IMG/VR virus record: IMGVR_UViG_2974629454_000001
Span: 59,119 to 123,118 of that record
DNA length: 64,000 bases
Reading direction: 5' to 3' (one strand)
Source: Streptomyces virus LukeCage
Lineage: Duplodnaviria > Heunggongvirae > Uroviricota > Caudoviricetes
In this document: positions 12,377 through 50,017 of the stretch, piece after piece
Layout: every line of letters starts with the position of its first letter
Numbering within the stretch: position 1 is the stretch's first letter
Position numbers and translations under genes: made by a program
The notes under the pieces: generated by a model
Told to the model about the DNA's origin: nothing
The model's input: the letters and a program-made list of their open reading frames with translations, nothing else
Database searches by the model: none

Positions 12377-12997
12377 ATGTCTACTACCACAGCAATGTTG
12401 CTCATCCTTGACCGATCTGGTAGCATGTCTAGTATCCAGATGGAGGCAGAGCAAGCGCTGAATGACTTCCTGACTAAGCAGAAGGCTGTTGACGGTCGAT
12501 GTGGAGTCAAGGTTGTTCAGTTTGACAGCGAAGTAGAAGATCTATTTGGTCCAGTTTCTCTAGCTAACGCACCTGAGATCAAGATCGTCCCTCGCGGAAT
12601 GACAGCACTACTTGACGCAATCGGCAAGTCTGTGACAGAATTCAGAGAGACGATGGACCATATGCCGGTGGATAAGCGACTCGTCGTTATCCTGACGGAT
12701 GGTCTAGAGAATGTTTCTCGGGAGTGGGATCTAGAAGCAGTTAACAAGCTGATTAGCGAGTCAAGGGAGTTGGGCTACGAGTTCATCTTCCTTGCCGCTA
12801 ACCAGGATGCAATTGCAACTGGTGCTCAAATGGGTATTCCAACAGCTTCAAGTTTGACCTTTGCAGCTAGTCCGGCTGGTGTGCGTGGCATGGGAATGAC
12901 CATGGACATGTATGTCACCAACTATCGTGAGGGTAAGTCAGCAGAATTCACTGATCAGGACAGGGCAACAGCCTCTGGCTTGACAGACGAAGACTAA
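12377..12997 (+). CDS. von Willebrand factor A (vWA) domain protein
   Basis: Metal-ion-dependent adhesion site (MIDAS) DRSGSMSS, then TALLDAIG and ILTDGLEN. Confidence 0.75.
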   Translation: MSTTTAMLLILDRSGSMSSIQMEAEQALNDFLTKQKAVDGRCGVKVVQFDSEVEDLFGPVSLANAPEIKIVPRGMTALLDAIGKSVTEFRETMDHMPVDKRLVVILTDGLENVSREWDLEAVNKLISESRELGYEFIFLAANQDAIATGAQMGIPTASSLTFAASPAGVRGMGMTMDMYVTNYREGKSAEFTDQDRATASGLTDED

Positions 12998-13104
12998 GCT
13001 GATAAAGTAGTAAATGTGGGTCGAAGGGCTCGGTCGGTTATCTTACATTGGAAATAGAAAGGTCATTAAATTGGCCACCCGACTCCCAACACTTATCCAC
13101 ATAT

Positions 13105-13178
13105 GCGGATGTAGTTTAATGGTAAAACCCCTGCCTTCCAAGCAGACGACGGGAGTTCGATTCTCCTCATCCGCTCCA
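13105..13178 (+). tRNA. tRNA-Gly(UCC), CCA encoded
   Basis: Acceptor gcggatg/catccgc; D arm gttt/aaac; anticodon loop cttccaa; T arm gggagttcgattctcct; CCA present. Confidence 0.8.
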
Positions 13179-14185: not shown

Positions 14186-14353
14186 ATGGCACTCACTGGA
14201 AACCGCGATACTTGTTGGTTTCAGCGATGTGGCAATAAACCAATCCATCGAATTAGGTACTACAACAAGACCGTAATGGTTTGCAACAAGCACAAGAATC
14301 TCGATGGAGCAGGTTGTGCGCCAAGTCGCAGAAAGCCAAAGGGTTCAGCTTGA
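14186..14353 (+). CDS. Cys4 Zn-ribbon protein
   Basis: Shine-Dalgarno AAGGA; CWFQRCGN...CNKH. Confidence 0.45.
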   Translation: MALTGNRDTCWFQRCGNKPIHRIRYYNKTVMVCNKHKNLDGAGCAPSRRKPKGSA

Positions 14354-14407
14354 CAGACGCTACTGGGTCTGTTAGTATTAAGTACAACGCAGCGACAAAG
14401 CTGCTAT

Positions 14408-14502: not shown

Positions 14503-14577
14503 CGGGATGTAGCTCAGCTTGGTCAGAGCGCGCCGTTTGGGGCGGTGAAGTCGCAGGTTCGAATCCTGTCATCCCGA
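14503..14577 (+). tRNA. tRNA-Pro(UGG)-like second copy, C1:G72
   Basis: Acceptor cgggatg/catcccg; D arm gctc/gagc; loop tttgggg; T arm gcaggttcgaatcctgt. Confidence 0.55.
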
Positions 14578-14740
14578 CAATTTGGGTCGAATGGGATACG
14601 GTTATCATTCAATGGATAATAGGTTCGATTCCTATCGCTGGGTTCGCCCGGTAGATACAAGTCATCTGAGATTGTGTGTGGTAGGATGACATTAAGGACT
14701 ACACACTATCCGTTCCCGCCTTATACCTAAAGGACTTATT

Positions 14741-15262
14741 ATGACGGTACTTCTTAGGACTATCCACGGAAGCCATCTATATGGCCTCGCTCACAAAGGC
14801 TCTGACAAGGACATTTACGAAGTAATTGCAACCAGTCGAACCAAGCGTAAGCGAAACATTAAGCAAACCATTGTGAATGGTGTTGACAAGACGACGGTAG
14901 ATATGTCAACATTTATGAATATGGTTGATGAATGCGTACCTCAAGCACTTGAAGCGCTATGGACGCCGGTCGCTGAGATCGATAAGATCCACGAATTCCG
15001 GACTCAATATCGAGTGAATCGCGCCAAGATGAAGGAAGTATACATTCGAACCGCTCTAAACTTCGCTAAAAATGATGGAGTAAAGCAGAGGCGACACGCT
15101 ATCCGCCTGCTTCTCAATCTCGGCGCAGCTTTGGAATACGGAAAGTTTAACCCTCAGCTCTCCAACATGGACAAGTTCATTCTTGAATCTTCTATGGGCG
15201 AGACTGGAGCATATGAGGATGTCTTCCTAGGCGTTCTCGATGAAGTACAAAAGTGGGTCTGA
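14741..15262 (+). CDS. nucleotidyltransferase-fold protein (MNT-like)
   Basis: HGSHLYGLAHKGSDKD fits the GS...DxD motif. Confidence 0.55.
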   Translation: MTVLLRTIHGSHLYGLAHKGSDKDIYEVIATSRTKRKRNIKQTIVNGVDKTTVDMSTFMNMVDECVPQALEALWTPVAEIDKIHEFRTQYRVNRAKMKEVYIRTALNFAKNDGVKQRRHAIRLLLNLGAALEYGKFNPQLSNMDKFILESSMGETGAYEDVFLGVLDEVQKWV

Positions 15263-15279: not shown

Positions 15280-15356
15280 TGGGGCGTATACCCTCTGTCT
15301 GATAAACAGTTGAAAGGTTAAGTGGTCACATGTGGGTTCAACTCCCACCGTCCCAA
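15280..15356 (+). other. tRNA-like element (acceptor stem plus canonical T arm; internal arms non-canonical)
   Basis: tggggcg ... gtgggttcaactcccac cgtccca. Confidence 0.35.
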
Positions 15357-17470: not shown

Positions 17471-17544
17471 GCGCCTGTAGCATATGTGGTTGATGCGCCA
17501 GTCTTATAAACTGGAGAAAGCGGGTTCAAATCCCGCCAGGCGTA
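17471..17544 (+). tRNA. tRNA-Ile(UAU)
   Basis: Acceptor gcgcctg/caggcgt (G1-U72); anticodon arm ccagt-cttataa-actgg; T arm gcgggttcaaatcccgc. Confidence 0.7.
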
Positions 17545-17570
17545 CTTTGTAATCAACCGAAGGGATAGAG

Positions 17571-18595: not shown

Positions 18596-18683
18596 GGAGG
18601 CGTTAACGTCGGCAGTGTGGAAGGTCTTTGAACGGCCTACGGTGTAGGGATACGCCGCGAGAGTTCGAATCTCTCCGCCTCCG
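18596..18683 (+). tRNA. tRNA-Ser(UGA), class II
   Basis: Acceptor ggaggcg/cgcctcc; anticodon arm aggtc-tttgaac-ggcct; T arm gagagttcgaatctctc. Confidence 0.7.
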
Positions 18684-18686
18684 CTT

Positions 18687-21182: not shown

Positions 21183-21253
21183 CCCGGCGTAGTGTAATGG
21201 AAACACGATACGTTGTCAGCGTATTATCGAGGGTTCGATTCCCTTCGTCGGGA
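21183..21253 (+). tRNA. tRNA-Asp(GUC)
   Basis: Acceptor cccggcg/cgtcggg; D arm gtgt-aatggaa-acac; anticodon arm atacg-ttgtcag-cgtat; T arm gagggttcgattccctt. Confidence 0.7.
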
Positions 21254-21255
21254 CT

Positions 21256-21330
21256 TTTGGGTCGAATGACTATCGGTTATCTGTCTATGAAACAGACCGA
21301 AACACGGTTCGAATCCGTGGATTGCTTTGG
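21256..21330 (+). ncRNA. tRNA-like module (candidate Y-RNA-like) with canonical T arm and anticodon-like hairpin but no pairing acceptor
   Basis: gggtcgaatgactatcggttatc ... gtct-atgaaac-agac ... cacggttcgaatccgtg. Confidence 0.4.
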
Positions 21331-21374
21331 CGCTAGGTTTACGGTCGATGTCAACAACTTACCCATACAACTTA

Positions 21375-21445
21375 ATTCGGGCCGAATGGAATCGGTTATC
21401 TTACACTGCAAATATAAGGTCGATTCCTACCAACTTGCCCGATCT
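21375..21445 (+). ncRNA. tRNA-like module (candidate Y-RNA-like)
   Basis: Terminal stem tcgggc/gcccga; D-like hairpin ccga-atggaa-tcgg; T-loop-like ggtcgattcc; shares the CGGTTATCTTACA...AAGGTCGATTCC box with 13027-13100 and 14588-14650. Confidence 0.4.
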
Positions 21446-21843: not shown

Positions 21844-23472
21844 ATGTCCAACGCACTAACTAATGCCGCAAAGGCAACCAACAAGACTTCTCAGAAGCTG
21901 CCAGCAAAGGCAGGACAGGTCAAGAACAACGCTGGTGGATTCGTCTTCCAGGTTTCTGATCAGTCACGCCTTGAGCGCTTTCTGATTCTTGGAACCGATG
22001 GAGGAACGTATTACGTTTCTGAGGTTAACCACACTCAGTCAAACGTAACCTTCCTCAACGAGATGATTGAGCGAGACGAAGCCTCTGTACTGAACACAAT
22101 TGTTGATGTATCTGTCAATGGTCGTGCGTACAAGCAGTCTCCTGCCCTGTTCGCTCTAGCCTCTGTCATTGTCAACGGCAAGGATAAGCAGGCGGTCAAG
22201 GCGGTATTCAACAGGGTCGTAAGGACTGCTACTCACCTCTACGAGGTGGTTAACTACCTTAACGAGCTTGGTGGATGGGGTCGCGCAAAGCGAGAGATCG
22301 TAGCTGGCTGGTTCGACAAGGACGCTGATAAGCTTGCTTATCAGGCTGTCAAGTATCGTTCCCGCACGTTCGGTGGAAACACCTGGACGCTACGAGACGT
22401 AATGCGAAAGGCTCACCCACAGAACGTCAACACGTCTGTTGCTGATTTCGTCCTTGGCAAGGAGCACGCGGCTGTAGATGACCTCCGGGTTATCGAGGGC
22501 TTCAAGCTTATGCAGAAGGCGGAGTCTGTAGAGGCTGTTCACGCAGTTCTGCGGGATTACGAGATGCTTAGCTGGGAGACTATTCCAACGCAGTTCCTCA
22601 CGGATGCTAGCGTTTGGAAGCGACTCTTTGCTAATGGTCAGCTTCGTGGTCAGGCTGCTGTTCGAAACATCACTCGCCTCGCGCGTATTGGTGCTTTCAA
22701 GGACATGCGGTTCGCTGCGAACTTTGCTAGCCAGCTAGCGAATGAGGAAATGATTCGTCAGTCTCGACTGCACCCAATTAACTTCCTTAACGCTGCCGTT
22801 GTTTACGCAGAAGGCCAGGTGGATCGAAAGAACATCTGGGGCGGACGTGTAAAGAACTGGGAGACTGAGGCCGTTATTGTCGATGCAATCGATGAGGCGT
22901 TCCACAAGTCATTCAAGACCATTGAGCCAGCCGGTAAGAGGACGATGCTAGCCATCGACTGTTCCGGTTCAATGAGCACACAGGCTATGGGTCTCGACCT
23001 AAGCTGTGCGCAGGTTGCTGGTGCTATGGCAATGACCATTGCTCGTACTGAGCCAGCTCACATCATCCGTGGTTTCTCTTCACAGGGATACAACTGGCGT
23101 GATAGCGGTATGGCTGAACTAAAGATTACTGGTCGCAGCTCTCTTGCTCAGGCAATGAGTGCAATGCGTGCGGTAAACTGGGGAGGCACAGACTGCTCAC
23201 TGCCAATGACGTGGGCTCTTGAGAATGGTGTGGAAGTTGACACCTTCGTTGTTATCACTGATAACGAGACGTGGGCTGGCAAGATTCACCCATTCCAGGC
23301 TCTCAAGAACTATCGTAAGAGCACAGGTATTGATGCACGACTTGCTGTTCTAGGAGTCGCTTCAACTCCATTCACTATTGCTGATAGTTCCGACCGAGGG
23401 ATGATGGATTTCGTAGGGTTCGACAGCAATGCACCTCGTGTGCTCGCTGACTTCTCTGCGGGTCGCATCTGA
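21844..23472 (+). CDS. rsr: Ro60/Rsr orthologue (TROVE domain + C-terminal vWA)
   Basis: N-terminal RLERFLILGTDGGTYYVSE is the Ro60 signature; C-terminal metal-ion-dependent adhesion site (MIDAS) IDCSGSMS and VVITDNETWAG; length is typical of Ro60. Confidence 0.8.
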   Translation: MSNALTNAAKATNKTSQKLPAKAGQVKNNAGGFVFQVSDQSRLERFLILGTDGGTYYVSEVNHTQSNVTFLNEMIERDEASVLNTIVDVSVNGRAYKQSPALFALASVIVNGKDKQAVKAVFNRVVRTATHLYEVVNYLNELGGWGRAKREIVAGWFDKDADKLAYQAVKYRSRTFGGNTWTLRDVMRKAHPQNVNTSVADFVLGKEHAAVDDLRVIEGFKLMQKAESVEAVHAVLRDYEMLSWETIPTQFLTDASVWKRLFANGQLRGQAAVRNITRLARIGAFKDMRFAANFASQLANEEMIRQSRLHPINFLNAAVVYAEGQVDRKNIWGGRVKNWETEAVIVDAIDEAFHKSFKTIEPAGKRTMLAIDCSGSMSTQAMGLDLSCAQVAGAMAMTIARTEPAHIIRGFSSQGYNWRDSGMAELKITGRSSLAQAMSAMRAVNWGGTDCSLPMTWALENGVEVDTFVVITDNETWAGKIHPFQALKNYRKSTGIDARLAVLGVASTPFTIADSSDRGMMDFVGFDSNAPRVLADFSAGRI

Positions 23473-28439: not shown

Positions 28440-28493
28440 CTTTGATGGTAAACGCGATATCATCAAATGCATATCAGGTCGCTCCTGATATGA

Positions 28494-28619
28494 GGAGTGT
28501 AGTTTAATTGGCAAAACCGCGAAATGCAATGTCGAACGGGAAGTGCTGCTGAGCTAAAGGCAGGTCTTACCTTAGTAGATATCAGAGTAGCAGTTGCGGG
28601 TTCGAGTCCCGTCACTCCG
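28494..28619 (+). other. 126-nt tRNA-like RNA: acceptor + D arm + T arm with about 50 nt inserted between the D and T regions
   Basis: ggagtg...cactcc acceptor; D arm gttt-aattggca-aaac; T arm gcgggttcgagtcccgt; two hairpins upstream (28441-28491). Confidence 0.3.
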
Positions 28620-28759
28620 CTAGCCTGAGATGACGATCCGATGTAGGTCCCCTAGGGCTTGCGCAGGCCCGAAGGGCATTCGGGAAAGGTGCCTAGCTAG
28701 GTCCGTCTACCAATAAGGTGAGAGTTTTTCACGGTTTTCCTCATAATTAAACCGTGTTT

Positions 28760-35937: not shown

Positions 35938-36005
35938 AGCGGATTAGTGAAACGGTATCACGCGAGGCTCATAATCTCGTATTCCTGTTCGAATCAGGGT
36001 CCGCC
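35938..36005 (+). tRNA. second CAU-anticodon tRNA with a 4-bp T stem and an A1-C72 mismatch
   Basis: D arm gtga/tcac; anticodon arm cgagg-ctcataa-tctcg; T arm cctg-ttcgaat-cagg. Confidence 0.5.
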
Positions 36006-36087
36006 CCCACGTGATAGTGAAAGGAAGCATCATACCGATGCGATACGACTAAACTCCTTCTACCGTTAAAAGTAGAAGGAGGTGCAA

Positions 36088-36557: not shown

Positions 36558-36629
36558 GCATGTAAGCCAGGGATAAGCTAGGCGGGCCTGTAAAGCCCTA
36601 CCTTGTTGGTTCGAATCCAACTACATGCA
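36558..36629 (+). tRNA. class I tRNA with anticodon GUA (Tyr-decoding) and no long variable arm
   Basis: Acceptor gcatgta/tacatgc; anticodon arm gggc-ctgtaaa-gccc; T arm gttggttcgaatccaac. Confidence 0.5.
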
Positions 36630-43678: not shown

Positions 43679-44755
43679 ATGAAGTTCACCAAGATCTTCT
43701 CACAGGAGTTGCTTGACGAGATGATCTCAGAGGGCTATGTCCGGGCGCAGTTTCATCCGGTCCTGCCTCTCAAGATTCTCAACTACTCTGAGAAGACTCA
43801 GTTCGCTGGAAAGTGGAACGACTGCACGCTTAACTGTCGTGGGTTGATCGTTGATCTCGACGGCAACTTGATTGCTCGTCCTTTCATGAAGTTCTTCAAC
43901 TTGGGTGATTCTCAGTCCGCACAACTTGACTGGGACGCTCCGGTTGAGGTTACGGACAAGAAGGACGGATCAATGGGAGTCCTGTACTCCTATGGTGGTC
44001 AGTTGGCGATTGCTACTCGTGGATCATTCATGTCAGATCAGGCAATCCACGGTACTCGTATTCTTAACGAGCGCTACAGCCACATTCAGTTCGTCTCAGA
44101 CTACACATTTATCTTCGAGATCGTTTACCCTGAGAACAGGATTGTTCTGGACTACGGTTCAATGGACGACCTGATTCTTCTGGGTGCGGTTCACAAGGAA
44201 TACGGTTACGTTTGTGGTCCTCTGGAGGCTCAGGCAATTGTAGATTGGGACGGGCCGGTGACGGAGGTCTTCAATTACAGCTCATTGCGTGAGGCGTCTG
44301 GAGCGCAGTACAGGAAGAACGCAGAGGGTTTCGTAGTCCGCTCTGGCAACAAGATGGTCAAGATCAAGCAGGCAGATTACGTTGAGCTGCACCGCATGAT
44401 CTCCATGCTTTCAGAGCGTTCCGTATGGAGTCAGCTTACCGAGGGCAAGACGATTCTTGAGATTTGTGAGGCACTGCCTGACGAGTTCCACGGATTTGTC
44501 AAGGACGTTGGTGGCAAGCTCCTTGAGGACTACGAGCGCATTGAGGTTGAGGTTTATGGTATCTACCAGAACCTTCTAACTTCTCTGGGCGAGGGCTTCA
44601 CGCGACGTGATTTCGCAATGGCTGCAAACCGAATTGATCTCTACAGGTCTCACATGTTCAACCTGCTTGACGGGAAGAGCATCAATGAGCTAATCTGGAA
44701 GCAGATCAGGCCGGAAGCCAAGCGAGAGGACGTACACCCTACCAATGCGGGCTAA
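43679..44755 (+). CDS. ATP-dependent RNA ligase, Rnl2-like nucleotidyltransferase
   Basis: Motif I TDKKDGSMG (KxDG), motif IV NAEGFVVRS (EGFVV) and motif V MVKIKQADY; Shine-Dalgarno GGAGGA. Confidence 0.7.
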   Translation: MKFTKIFSQELLDEMISEGYVRAQFHPVLPLKILNYSEKTQFAGKWNDCTLNCRGLIVDLDGNLIARPFMKFFNLGDSQSAQLDWDAPVEVTDKKDGSMGVLYSYGGQLAIATRGSFMSDQAIHGTRILNERYSHIQFVSDYTFIFEIVYPENRIVLDYGSMDDLILLGAVHKEYGYVCGPLEAQAIVDWDGPVTEVFNYSSLREASGAQYRKNAEGFVVRSGNKMVKIKQADYVELHRMISMLSERSVWSQLTEGKTILEICEALPDEFHGFVKDVGGKLLEDYERIEVEVYGIYQNLLTSLGEGFTRRDFAMAANRIDLYRSHMFNLLDGKSINELIWKQIRPEAKREDVHPTNAG

Positions 44756-45503: not shown

Positions 45504-46400
45504 GTGAAGATGCAGCTTCTCATCCTCCGGGGAATTCCCGGTTGTGGTAAGAGCACTTGGGCGCATGATGTGTGGCTCAAGGAAAACCCGAATGGTGTTC
45601 GAGTCAATCGTGATGACATTCGTATGCAGCTCTTTGGCCGGGAGACCGGAGTAGACGAGGAGCTTGTTACTCGAATTGAGCACGGAATGGTGGATGGGGC
45701 TCTGTCAAAGGGCTACTCTGTCGTTGTCGATGACACGAACATTCGACACAAGTACATCAAGGAATTCGTCAAGATCGGTCAGCGCCATGGTGCTAGTGTT
45801 TCAGTTAAGCAGTTTGACGTTTCACTTGAGACGGCAATTCAGCGAAACACTGTTCGTGCTGCACTCGGTGGTCGAGACGTTCCTGAGTCTGTCATTCGCA
45901 AGATGCACCAGTCCATGAAGTCTAGTGGAGTTTTCACTGACTTCCACACAAGCGTTACGGCTGTTCGTCCTTACGATCGTCCCGAAGGTGCAGAGAAGGT
46001 TTACCTCTTTGACATTGATGGCACGCTTGCTGAGATGAACACTCGTGATCCTTTCTACTGGAAGGGTGTTGGCGAGGACGATCCGCGACGACAGGTGATC
46101 ATCACTGCTCAGGCTCATGCTAAGGCAGGATACAAGATCATCGTTATGAGCGGTCGAGATGGCTCATGCCGCAATGAAACAATCGCTTGGCTGGAACTCT
46201 ACGACATTCCTTTCTCAGAATTGCACATGCGTGCTGAGGGGGACATGCGTAAGGACTCTGTCGTCAAGCAAGAGCTGTTCGATGAGCACATTCGTGACAT
46301 CTATGATGTTGTGGCTGTGTACGATGATCGTCAGCAGGTTGTTGACATGTGGCGTGCGATGGGCATAGACTGTTTCCAGGTAGCACCCGGAAACTTCTGA
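45504..46400 (+). CDS. polynucleotide 5'-kinase/3'-phosphatase (T4 Pnk-like)
   Basis: N-terminal P-loop GIPGCGKST; C-terminal HAD motifs VYLFDIDGTLAE, IIVMSGRD and AVYDDRQQ. Confidence 0.8.
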   Translation: MKMQLLILRGIPGCGKSTWAHDVWLKENPNGVRVNRDDIRMQLFGRETGVDEELVTRIEHGMVDGALSKGYSVVVDDTNIRHKYIKEFVKIGQRHGASVSVKQFDVSLETAIQRNTVRAALGGRDVPESVIRKMHQSMKSSGVFTDFHTSVTAVRPYDRPEGAEKVYLFDIDGTLAEMNTRDPFYWKGVGEDDPRRQVIITAQAHAKAGYKIIVMSGRDGSCRNETIAWLELYDIPFSELHMRAEGDMRKDSVVKQELFDEHIRDIYDVVAVYDDRQQVVDMWRAMGIDCFQVAPGNF

Positions 46401-49908: not shown

Positions 49909-49999
49909 GGAAGTGTGGCTGAGTCCGGTTTAAGGCGCATCACTGCTAATGATGTGAGTGAATCAAGTAGCTCCGCAGGTTCGAATCCTGTCACTTCCG
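49909..49999 (+). tRNA. tRNA-Ser(GCU), class II
   Basis: ggaagtgtggctgag... resembles E. coli Ser; anticodon arm catca-ctgctaa-tgatg; T arm gcaggttcgaatcctgt. Confidence 0.75.
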
Positions 50000-50017
50000 C
50001 AATGATATAATCTTCAC

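Follow-up and report, generated by a model that had tools for sequence, protein, structure and literature searches.

Streptomyces phage LukeCage is a cluster BE siphovirus of the genus Karimacvirus with a genome of 133 kb. The stretch of DNA analyzed here, referred to as the window, covers 64 kb of that genome, and positions in it correspond to those of MH590597.1 minus 59118. ARAGORN identified 42 tRNA genes and a tmRNA in the window, all on the plus strand. Besides the tmRNA, the phage encodes an RnlA-like ligase (1.4e-21), a polynucleotide kinase, and the nucleotidyltransferase gp109, whose match to Pfam RlaP is weak or borderline (22.3 bits, cutoff 23). It also encodes gp129, a Ro60 ortholog annotated in the record as "Ro-like RNA binding protein" (gene 129), with Pfam matches to TROVE (3.7e-35) and vWA_Ro60 (2e-59) and full-length matches to the structures of Deinococcus radiodurans Rsr (2NVO, 1.7e-98) and vertebrate Ro60 (1YVP, 2.8e-82). 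In nine Streptomyces phage records that we inspected, no RNA features are annotated besides tRNA and tmRNA. In some relatives, genes for HNH and LAGLIDADG endonucleases are inserted nearby.

Four related elements, designated A to D, lie close to the sites at which the initial annotation had placed four tRNA-like sequences. All are on the plus strand, each between tRNAs and open reading frames (ORFs) inside plus-strand transcription units (Table 1). The extents first assigned were too short at the ends, most clearly in B, which measures 151 nt and not 63. Adjacency to genuine tRNAs had been recognized correctly: the gap between A and tRNA-Gly is 2 nt (2 to 4 nt in A orthologs), B begins 4 nt after the discriminator base of tRNA-Pro, and C begins about 4 nt after tRNA-Asp. 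D follows C at a distance of 11 nt and lies 30 nt upstream of gp128.

Table 1. Features of the LukeCage window (positions are those of the window)
Feature	Position	Strand	Description	Basis
Promoter-like site	12980..13008	+	TTGACA-17-TG-n-TAAAGT	Consensus scan 10/12, extended -10
Element A, Y RNA-like	13014..13102	+	89 nt	Sequence, MFE fold, R1 97.5 bits
A lower stem	13014-13021 with 13095-13102		ATGTGGGT with ATCCACAT	
A bulged C	13022			
A G.U and A-U pairs	13023-24 with 13093-94		GA with TT	
A upper stem	13026-13037 with 13079-13087		GGG/G/GTCGG with CCGAC/T/CCC	
A UUAUC	13038-13042			
A inner hairpin	13061-13076			
tRNA-Gly(tcc)	13105..13178	+	2 nt 3' of A	ARAGORN, Rfam
tRNA-Pro(tgg)	14503..14578	+	Directly 5' of B	ARAGORN, Rfam
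Element B, Y RNA-like	14581..14731	+	151 nt, YrlA-like	Comparative 3'-partner search, RNAalifold, pair counts
B lower stem	14581-87 with 14725-31		TTTGGGT with ACCTAAA	
B bulged C	14588			
B upper stem	14593-14601 with 14710-17		GGGA-ACGG with CCGT-TCCC	
B V hairpin	14603-14618			
B T arm	14619-14635		ATAGG-TTCGATT-CCTAT; 5-bp stem, 7-nt loop	
B acceptor-like hairpin	14637-14652		After T arm	
B possible H-type pseudoknot	S1 14661-67 with 14684-90; S2 14674-79 with 14701-06		At the place of the YrlA D arm	
gp109 nucleotidyltransferase	14741..15262	+		Record annotation
tRNA-Asp(gtc)	21183..21254	+	Directly 5' of C	ARAGORN, Rfam
Element C, Y RNA-like	21258..21365	+	108 nt	R1, RNAalifold
C lower stem	21258-62 with 21361-65		TGGGT with ACCCA	
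C bulged C	21263			
C G.U/A-U step	21264-65 with 21359-60		GA with TT	
C upper stem	21267-75 with 21346-53		TGAC(T)ATCG with CGATGTCA	
C hairpin	21280-96		TCTGT-CUAUGAA-ACAGA	
C T arm	21303-21319		CACGG-TTCGAAT-CCGTG; 5-bp stem, 7-nt loop	
Element D, Y RNA-like	21377..21442	+	66 nt, short, YrlB-like	R1, MFE fold
D lower stem	21377-82 with 21437-42		TCGGGC with GCCCGA	
D bulged C	21383			
D G.U/A-U step	21384-85 with 21435-36		GA with TT	
D upper stem	21388-94 with 21421-27		GGAATCG with CGATTCC	
gp129, Ro60 ortholog	21844..23472	+	TROVE HEAT-repeat ring and vWA	Pfam, full-length structure matches

The sequence CGGTTATC occurs at five sites in the window against 0.98 expected, a count that 0 of 100 shuffles reached, and four of the five sites are elements A to D. 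The shared box described previously holds in all four only loosely: scanned across the window with up to three mismatches, its full 22-nt form matches B and C alone, while the box of A carries a 3-nt insertion (GGTCGAAGGGCTCGGTCGGTTATC) and that of D (GGCCGAATGGAATCGGTTATC) is one base shorter. The exact box was replaced by a looser one that allows the gap to vary. The second motif said to be common to the family, TTACAYTGSAAATAKAA, is present in A and D and not in B or C. In addition, a covariance model (R1) was built from 11 orthologs of A only and run on the window with filters off. A, B, C, and D were its only convincing matches in the 64 kb, the next best scoring 11.3 bits (E = 1.8). B itself scored 11.6 bits and was misaligned because of its 110-nt interior, and it was therefore assessed on its own 13-sequence alignment. 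The window contains four copies.

Architecture and covariation of the four elements

The four elements share one plan. Outermost is a lower stem that joins the 5' end to a distant 3' strand; above it come a bulged C, a G.U pair and usually an A-U pair (GA opposite UU), an internal loop, and an upper stem. The 5' strand of the upper stem ends in the CGG of CGGUUAUC, which also holds the YUAY of YrlA. Beyond the upper stem, UUAUC leads into a variable module, which is a loop with a small hairpin in A and D, a hairpin and a T arm in C, and, in B, a V hairpin, a T arm, an acceptor-like hairpin, and a possible pseudoknot. Read against this plan, the box of the initial annotation resolves into G-N-C-G-A-A-(N)-G, a variable stretch, and CGG-UUAU-C. 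The observation that the conserved core adopts no consistent cloverleaf was correct: the partner of the 5' box is a remote 3' strand beyond the end points first drawn, which is why cloverleaf folding fails. When each element was folded singly by minimum free energy (MFE), the lower and upper stems were recovered in all four, with modest thermodynamic z-scores of -0.5 to -2.5.

Chen et al. (2014, PMC4201824) named two sequence signatures of bacterial and phage Y RNAs, GNCGAAN0-1G near the 5' end and the YUAY that opens YrlA's V region, and both are present here. GNCGAAN0-1G is present in every element (GTCGAAG in A, GTCGAATG in B and C, and GCCGAATG in D) and starts 5 to 7 nt from the 5' end of the closing stem. 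YUAY follows the upper stem in all four as UUAU within GGUUAUC. The GNCGAAN0-1G sequence is the counterpart of vertebrate GGUCCGA, which is contacted by Ro60 and, within a bulged helix, is paired to 3' residues (PMC4201824). In systems already characterized, Ro60 contacts the region made up of the bulged C, the G.U/A-U step, and GNCGAA(N)G.

The structure of A was evaluated across its 11 orthologs, in which 91.8% of cells are paired, compared with 36 to 51% in slid controls. Its covariation score exceeded those of all 500 shuffles, and the upper-stem pair 21-75 is GC in seven orthologs, AU in three, and UA in one. R1 scored 97.5 bits on A and 8.8 bits on its reverse strand, which points to a signal at the RNA level, since conserved G.U pairs become A-C mismatches on the opposite strand. 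A promoter-like site ends 6 nt 5' of A, and both of its hexamers are kept upstream of all 15 distinct A orthologs. From its sequence and position, we infer that this site starts a transcript comprising A, tRNA-Gly, tRNA-Gln, and tRNA-Trp.

For B, the complement of the seven bases preceding the bulged C was sought in every box-containing sequence, and in every B ortholog it turned up, as ACCTAAA, about 146 nt downstream. TTCGCCC at about 14643, which would have made a 65-nt RNA, had been considered as the 3' partner; the comparative search overturned it in favor of 14725-14731, and the TTCG hairpin is the acceptor-like stem-loop. The structure was also obtained by RNAalifold on the 13 orthologs. 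Across them, 96.8% of cells are paired, compared with 39 to 52% when slid, and double changes are seen in the upper stem (AU in seven, GC in six), the T stem, S1, and S2. One pair of S2 is unpaired in five sequences, and the pseudoknot predicted from S1 and S2 is tentative.

R1, which contains no C sequence, aligned C with both stems at 28 to 39 bits (E values of 1e-4 to 2e-6). RNAalifold on nine positional orthologs of C gave the lower stem, the upper stem, the T arm, and a 4-bp hairpin following it, with five covarying pairs; no D arm was found in this alignment. D was matched by R1 with both stems intact (38 bits, E = 3e-7), and its MFE fold is the same structure (z = -2.5). In the Stanimal ortholog of D, the upper-stem strands GGAATCG and CGATTCC are replaced by AGTATCGA and TCGATATT, a compensatory change. 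Because this change keeps the helix and destroys the T-loop-like sequence, CGATTCC in D is a helix strand and not a T-loop. The T-loop-like GGT(T)CGATTCC ending once attributed to the whole family is real in B and C only, and the corresponding region of A is an unrelated hairpin.

Detection extended across families. On 48 related or metagenomic phage loci, R1 gave 87 matches, often two to five per locus. Among the 80 distinct matches, 20 of the 23 pairs show double changes, 89.4% of cells are paired (35 to 46% when slid), and the covariation score is 0.481 versus 0.179 for shuffled alignments, none of 500 reaching 0.481; this alignment was fitted to R1 and is biased towards the structure, and the slid controls and the independent family alignments agree with its result. 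Below the bulge, 66 of these sequences have a G.U pair and 13 a G-C pair; above it, the counts are 66 and 14, respectively. The bulged C together with G.U is conserved in 66 of the 80. Within the single-family alignments of A and B, the lower stem hardly varies. Alignment and folding, proposed in the initial annotation as a check, favor a conserved RNA structure when applied to orthologs (RNAalifold, pair counts): both stems covary.

Association with Ro60 genes and with tRNAs

The Ro60 gene of LukeCage starts 400 nt 3' of D, which places C and D 0.4 to 0.6 kb upstream of it; for A and B, the upstream distance is larger than usual, at 8.7 and 7.1 kb. A search of other genomes for the box was also suggested at the outset; homologous elements lie beside Ro60 genes in other phages and in bacteria. 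IMG/VR loci were fetched by the DNA pattern GGGTCGAA-N4-12-CGGTTATC alone. With 16 specified bases, the pattern gave many chance matches in GC-rich coding DNA, as expected, and loci were retained only if stem closure, the covariance model, or a Ro60 gene confirmed them. A Ro60 ortholog with 31 to 94% identity to gp129 lies within the few kilobases covered in 27 of the 120 pattern loci. A set of 80 bacterial Ro60 loci (Actinomycetota, Gemmatimonadota, Myxococcota, and other phyla) was fetched via a three-protein alignment. R1 gave 46 matches in it at E ≤ 0.01, all on the strand of the Ro60 gene and nearly all within about 400 nt upstream of it. In mycobacteriophage ScottMcG, of the Bxz1 type, three elements with the box directly precede Ro60, and the second of them has a canonical T arm, acceptor-like hairpin, and D arm; the Bxz1 group is where phage Y RNAs were first reported. 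By tblastn, Ro60 is found in 358 phage records, 115 of them from Streptomyces phages. The protein gp129 is the presumed partner of A to D.

Association with tRNAs is likewise recurrent. A same-strand tRNA lies within 15 nt, mostly at 0 to 6 nt, of 35 of the 80 distinct R1 matches, compared with 1.8% for random placement in the same loci. Unrelated phages are among the cases: one locus (L018) carries a Y/tRNA/Y/tRNA/Y/tRNA array followed by Ro60, and abutment also occurs in loci L022 and L052 and in Gordonia phage BlueNGold. This arrangement suggests maturation by tRNA-processing enzymes. Elements A to D would be transcribed with the plus-strand tRNA and ORF units, A from its own conserved promoter-like site. 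As A ends 2 nt before tRNA-Gly, cleavage by RNase P at the 5' end of that tRNA could create the 3' end of A and free it as a structured 5' leader. As B and C start about 4 nt after tRNA-Pro and tRNA-Asp, the 3'-end processing of these tRNAs could free their 5' ends.

Identity of the elements and alternative readings

A Y RNA identity was among the options listed in the initial annotation, and it has gained strong support from the position of Ro60 400 nt 3' of D, the Ro-binding motif, the bulged closing stem, the covariation, and the Ro60-linked homologs. We conclude that A to D are very probably four paralogous Y RNA (Yrl RNA) genes whose products are partners of the phage Ro60 protein gp129. 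Ro60 would bind the closing-stem module and protect the RNA, and the variable modules would either link Ro60 to various partners or regulate entry to its cavity. Host PNPase, a partner in the RYPER complex, is one candidate; tRNA-binding enzymes are others for the forms with a T arm. The likely purpose would be RNA surveillance or repair during infection, alongside the 42 tRNAs, the tmRNA, the RnlA-like ligase, the polynucleotide kinase, and the nucleotidyltransferase.

A more ambitious version of this model can be formulated, which taken as a whole we consider unlikely. In phages rich in tRNAs, the Y RNAs would be integral modules of the tRNA operons, with ends made by RNase P and tRNA 3'-end enzymes. 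Through its own distal module (a T arm with pseudoknot, a T arm without one, or plain loops), each paralog would bring Ro60 together with a partner of its own, which could be PNPase of the host, the RnlA-like ligase with the polynucleotide kinase, or the RlaP-like nucleotidyltransferase, and together they would form a hub for tRNA surveillance and repair against host anticodon-nuclease defenses. Ro60 bound to B could also control translation of the nucleotidyltransferase, the ribosome-binding site of which overlaps the closing stem.

That overlap also bears on the possibility that the elements are cis-acting structures of tRNA and mRNA operons that work independently of Ro60, as processing or insulator hairpins or as regulators in 5' untranslated regions. 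Their location between tRNAs and ORFs in plus-strand units would suit such a role. The AAAGGA ribosome-binding site of gp109 overlaps ACCUAAA, the 3' strand of the B closing stem, and the ACCTAAA-GGA junction is kept in all B orthologs; B could occlude this Shine-Dalgarno sequence, and D, with gp128 starting 30 nt 3' of it, could control gp128 and Ro60. However, A is followed by a tRNA and not by an ORF, and in unrelated phages and bacteria this architecture is found linked to Ro60 regardless of which gene lies downstream. The elements moreover contain the motif that Ro60 contacts in known systems, and a cis role, which B and D may have, leaves the association with Ro60 unexplained. As a replacement for the Y RNA assignment, we regard a cis role as very improbable. 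The two roles are not exclusive, since the Y RNAs of Salmonella are also made from an operon transcript.

The tRNA-like character assigned to the elements from the start, and with it the notion that they are tRNA pseudogenes, found no support. ARAGORN called none of the four, and the Rfam tRNA model matched none of them even at E ≤ 10. Attempts to draw cloverleafs by hand had also failed, the 5' box having no acceptor or D-arm partner nearby. The conserved box is a Y RNA stem and not a tRNA arm. Genuine tRNAs do adjoin the elements, B and C have perfect T arms (GG-TTCGAWT-CC), and YrlA-type Y RNAs may themselves descend from tRNAs (PMC4201824). Yet the stems that no tRNA has are conserved and covary across phage subfamilies and bacteria, and compensatory changes are not expected of pseudogenes. 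We therefore give hardly any credence to decay of duplicated tRNA genes in the array into sequences with no function of their own. Equally slight is the chance of repeats that act at the DNA level, be they promoters, recombination sites, or sites for homing endonucleases or other double-stranded-DNA-binding proteins: the box is indeed a repeated, conserved sequence in intergenic DNA, with HNH or LAGLIDADG genes near it in some relatives, but what is conserved is the pairing of distant segments, in which the 3' partner changes along with the 5' strand, with G.U wobbles that exist only in plus-strand RNA, with all matches in the direction of transcription, and with the reverse strand at background. 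The association with Ro60 also counts against both the pseudogene and the DNA-repeat readings.

Comparison with Rfam was uninformative. At the gathering score and at E ≤ 10, no family was found on A to D beyond chance-level matches (SNORA42, DicF, and similar). Control loci with canonical YrlA-like RNAs gave no Rfam match either, so the negative result says little about bacterial Y RNAs.

Comparison with known Ro60-associated RNAs

YrlA and YrlB are known from Salmonella Typhimurium, Mycobacterium smegmatis, and mycobacteriophages (Chen et al. 2014, PMC4201824), and YrlA's tRNA-like domain has been described structurally (bioRxiv 10.1101/312249). The LukeCage elements resemble both in the nearby Ro60 (Rsr) gene, GNCGAAN0-1G, the pairing of 5' and 3' ends, and YUAY past the upper stem. 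ScottMcG has the same box as LukeCage, also upstream of Ro60. Several paralogs occur per locus, and the short A and D compare with YrlB or with the phiLo RNAs discussed below. B and C share with YrlA a T stem-loop of tRNA T-loop consensus (AUAGG-UUCGAUU-CCUAU and CACGG-UUCGAAU-CCGUG, respectively), with a G-C closing pair, a UUCGAWU loop, and stem covariation in orthologs; A and D have none. The YrlA order of T arm, acceptor stem, and D arm was not found in any element of the LukeCage window. None of A to D has a D stem-loop: at its place B has a longer region of interleaved helices, possibly a pseudoknot, and C has nothing. Because the D stem-loop that defines YrlA is missing, we do not file B and C as YrlA proper on their predicted structures. 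Canonical elements of that order do occur in related phages (L125, 4390-4536; L127, 10363-10499; L131, 3103), and Samistivirus relatives have an extra canonical YrlA right after tRNA-Ile(tat) that LukeCage does not.

The LukeCage copies differ from YrlA and YrlB also in genomic setting, two of them lying 7 to 9 kb from Ro60 and copies directly abutting tRNAs. The 2014 survey kept only candidates within 4 kb of Ro60 and discarded matches overlapping tandem tRNAs (PMC4201824); with these two filters, it would miss copies of the LukeCage type.

Yrn1 of D. radiodurans, which functions in the Rsr/Y RNA/PNPase complex RYPER, combines a Ro-binding stem, an anticodon-arm-like hairpin, and a T stem-loop and has no full D arm (PMC4201824). 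C has the same order, a 5-bp hairpin with a 7-nt loop and then the T arm, and is likened to Yrn1 by this layout. Tethering of PNPase is known for Yrn1, whereas for the phage RNAs it is a conjecture. Another phage system is that of Thermus phage phiLo, for which binding of Yrl1 and Yrl2 to the phage Ro60 has been demonstrated, as have complexes of the two with host PNPase (PMC12135203). There, too, a phage Ro60 gene has several short Y RNA-like genes upstream, and Yrl1 and Yrl2 were recognized by a CGAA motif and a stem-bulge-stem layout, as in LukeCage. The phiLo copies are two, directly upstream of Ro60, whereas the four of LukeCage, predicted from sequence, are spread through an array of 42 tRNAs, and two of them have T arms.

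The metazoan RNAs hY1, hY3, hY4, and hY5 share with A to D the closing stem, the bulged C beside a GGUCCGA-like 5' strand, the upper stem, and the large loop (PMC4201824). They differ in that the Rfam Y_RNA model gave no match on A to D, and in transcription and end formation: excision from operons is the apparent route for A to D, whereas Pol III makes the metazoan Y RNAs, whose U tails are bound by La. The LukeCage box presumably resembles the 5' end of hY4.

Several consequences follow for the study of these RNAs. Ro60 is annotated in about 115 Streptomyces phage records and a partner RNA in none of the nine inspected, which amounts to an annotation gap. Elements A to D provide four candidate Ro60 ligands in a cultivable phage-host pair, with naturally differing distal modules that are useful for asking what the effector module of a Y RNA does, a question open for YrlA. 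From the recurrent abutment with tRNAs, a simple and testable way in which Y RNAs may mature can be proposed.

A 2014 study described Y RNAs close to phage Ro60 genes (PMC4201824), and biochemical work followed in 2025 (PMC12135203). Our literature search found no report of Y RNAs in cluster BE Streptomyces phages, the papers there mentioning the Ro60 protein only. The kind of RNA is already known, and A to D leave the concept of Ro60 and its Y RNAs unchanged. What they add to the known systems are previously unrecognized members: four paralogs, two of them 7 to 9 kb from Ro60, tightly integrated with tRNAs and including, in B and C, variants that lack the D arm.

Element B and the start of gp109

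Element B, one of the four Y RNA-like elements (A to D) of LukeCage, runs directly into the translation start of the adjacent gene. At 14725-14743, ACCUAAA, the 3' strand of the B closing stem, is continuous with an AAAGGA Shine-Dalgarno sequence and the ATG (14741) of gp109, and this junction was retained in every B ortholog compared (13 of 13). The gp109 product is a nucleotidyltransferase with a borderline match to the Pfam family RlaP ("RNA repair pathway"; 22.3 bits versus a cutoff of 23). Translation of gp109 might be coupled to folding of the B Y RNA or to its binding by Ro60.

An RnlA-family RNA ligase and a polynucleotide kinase together make up the classic repair pair for tRNAs that have been cut in the anticodon loop. 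Beside its gp207 ligase and gp210 kinase (see the table), LukeCage carries genes for Ro60 and a tmRNA as well as for a band-7-like protein.

tRNA genes and promoter-like sites

Several tRNA genes were called by only some of the sources consulted, as set out in the table. Just after the gp109 stop codon, a weak tRNA-like match at 15280-15356 (Rfam tRNA, 30.3 bits versus a gathering score of 29) has neither an ARAGORN call nor a GenBank annotation and may be a degenerate tRNA. Another Rfam tRNA match (28493-28620; 32.5 bits) lies between tRNA-Leu and tRNA-Phe; at 128 nt it is well above tRNA length, and it could have arisen by chance or could mark a tRNA that is interrupted or contains an intron. 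The promoter-like sites preceding two of the tRNA units share the extended form CTTGACAGACG-N-TG-N-TA(A/G)(A/T)GT, which may be the LukeCage promoter type for tRNA operons.

Features of LukeCage, in window positions, and of related phage loci (L124, L125, L129), in their own coordinates
Feature	Position	Basis or context
Promoter-like site	12980-13008	In front of the A/tRNA-Gly unit
Promoter-like site	14350-14378	In front of the tRNA-Pro/B unit
tRNA-Ser(tga)	18596-18684	ARAGORN; absent from MH590597.1 feature table
Second tRNA-Met(cat)	35938-36009	ARAGORN; absent from MH590597.1 feature table
Second tRNA-Tyr	36558-36629	GenBank and Rfam (35.3 bits); missed by ARAGORN
RNA ligase gp207, T4 RnlA-family	43679-44755	TIGR02308, 1.4e-21, under curated cutoff
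Polynucleotide kinase gp210	about 45510-46400	
tRNA-Ser(gct)	49909-50000	ARAGORN; absent from MH590597.1 feature table
Extra Y RNA, canonical YrlA layout	L124 6169-6315; L125 4390-4536; L129 6142-6288	Samistivirus phages Braelyn, Jay2Jay, Pepperwood

Y RNAs of other phages

In the subfamily Loccivirinae, represented by phages Comrade, Limpid, and Forrest (L126, L127, and L130), G replaces the first A of CGAA, which gives a Ro-binding motif of GUCGGAUG or GUCGGCUG. The stems are retained despite this substitution, and CGRA is therefore tolerated in the motif.

The extra Y RNA of the Samistivirus phages, comprising a T arm, an acceptor-like hairpin, and the D arm GUAGCUCAAUGGCAGAGC, lies directly 3' of tRNA-Ile(tat). 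Because only 25 nt separate tRNA-Ile(tat) (17471-17545) from the next open reading frame in LukeCage, this phage lacks a YrlA copy of the Samistivirus type. On an unrelated phage contig (L018; IMG/VR UViG 3300028837_000518), Y RNA and tRNA alternate strictly three times over positions 622-1214, and this array is followed, from position 1395, by a Ro60 gene whose product shares 35% identity with gp129, the LukeCage Ro60 ortholog.
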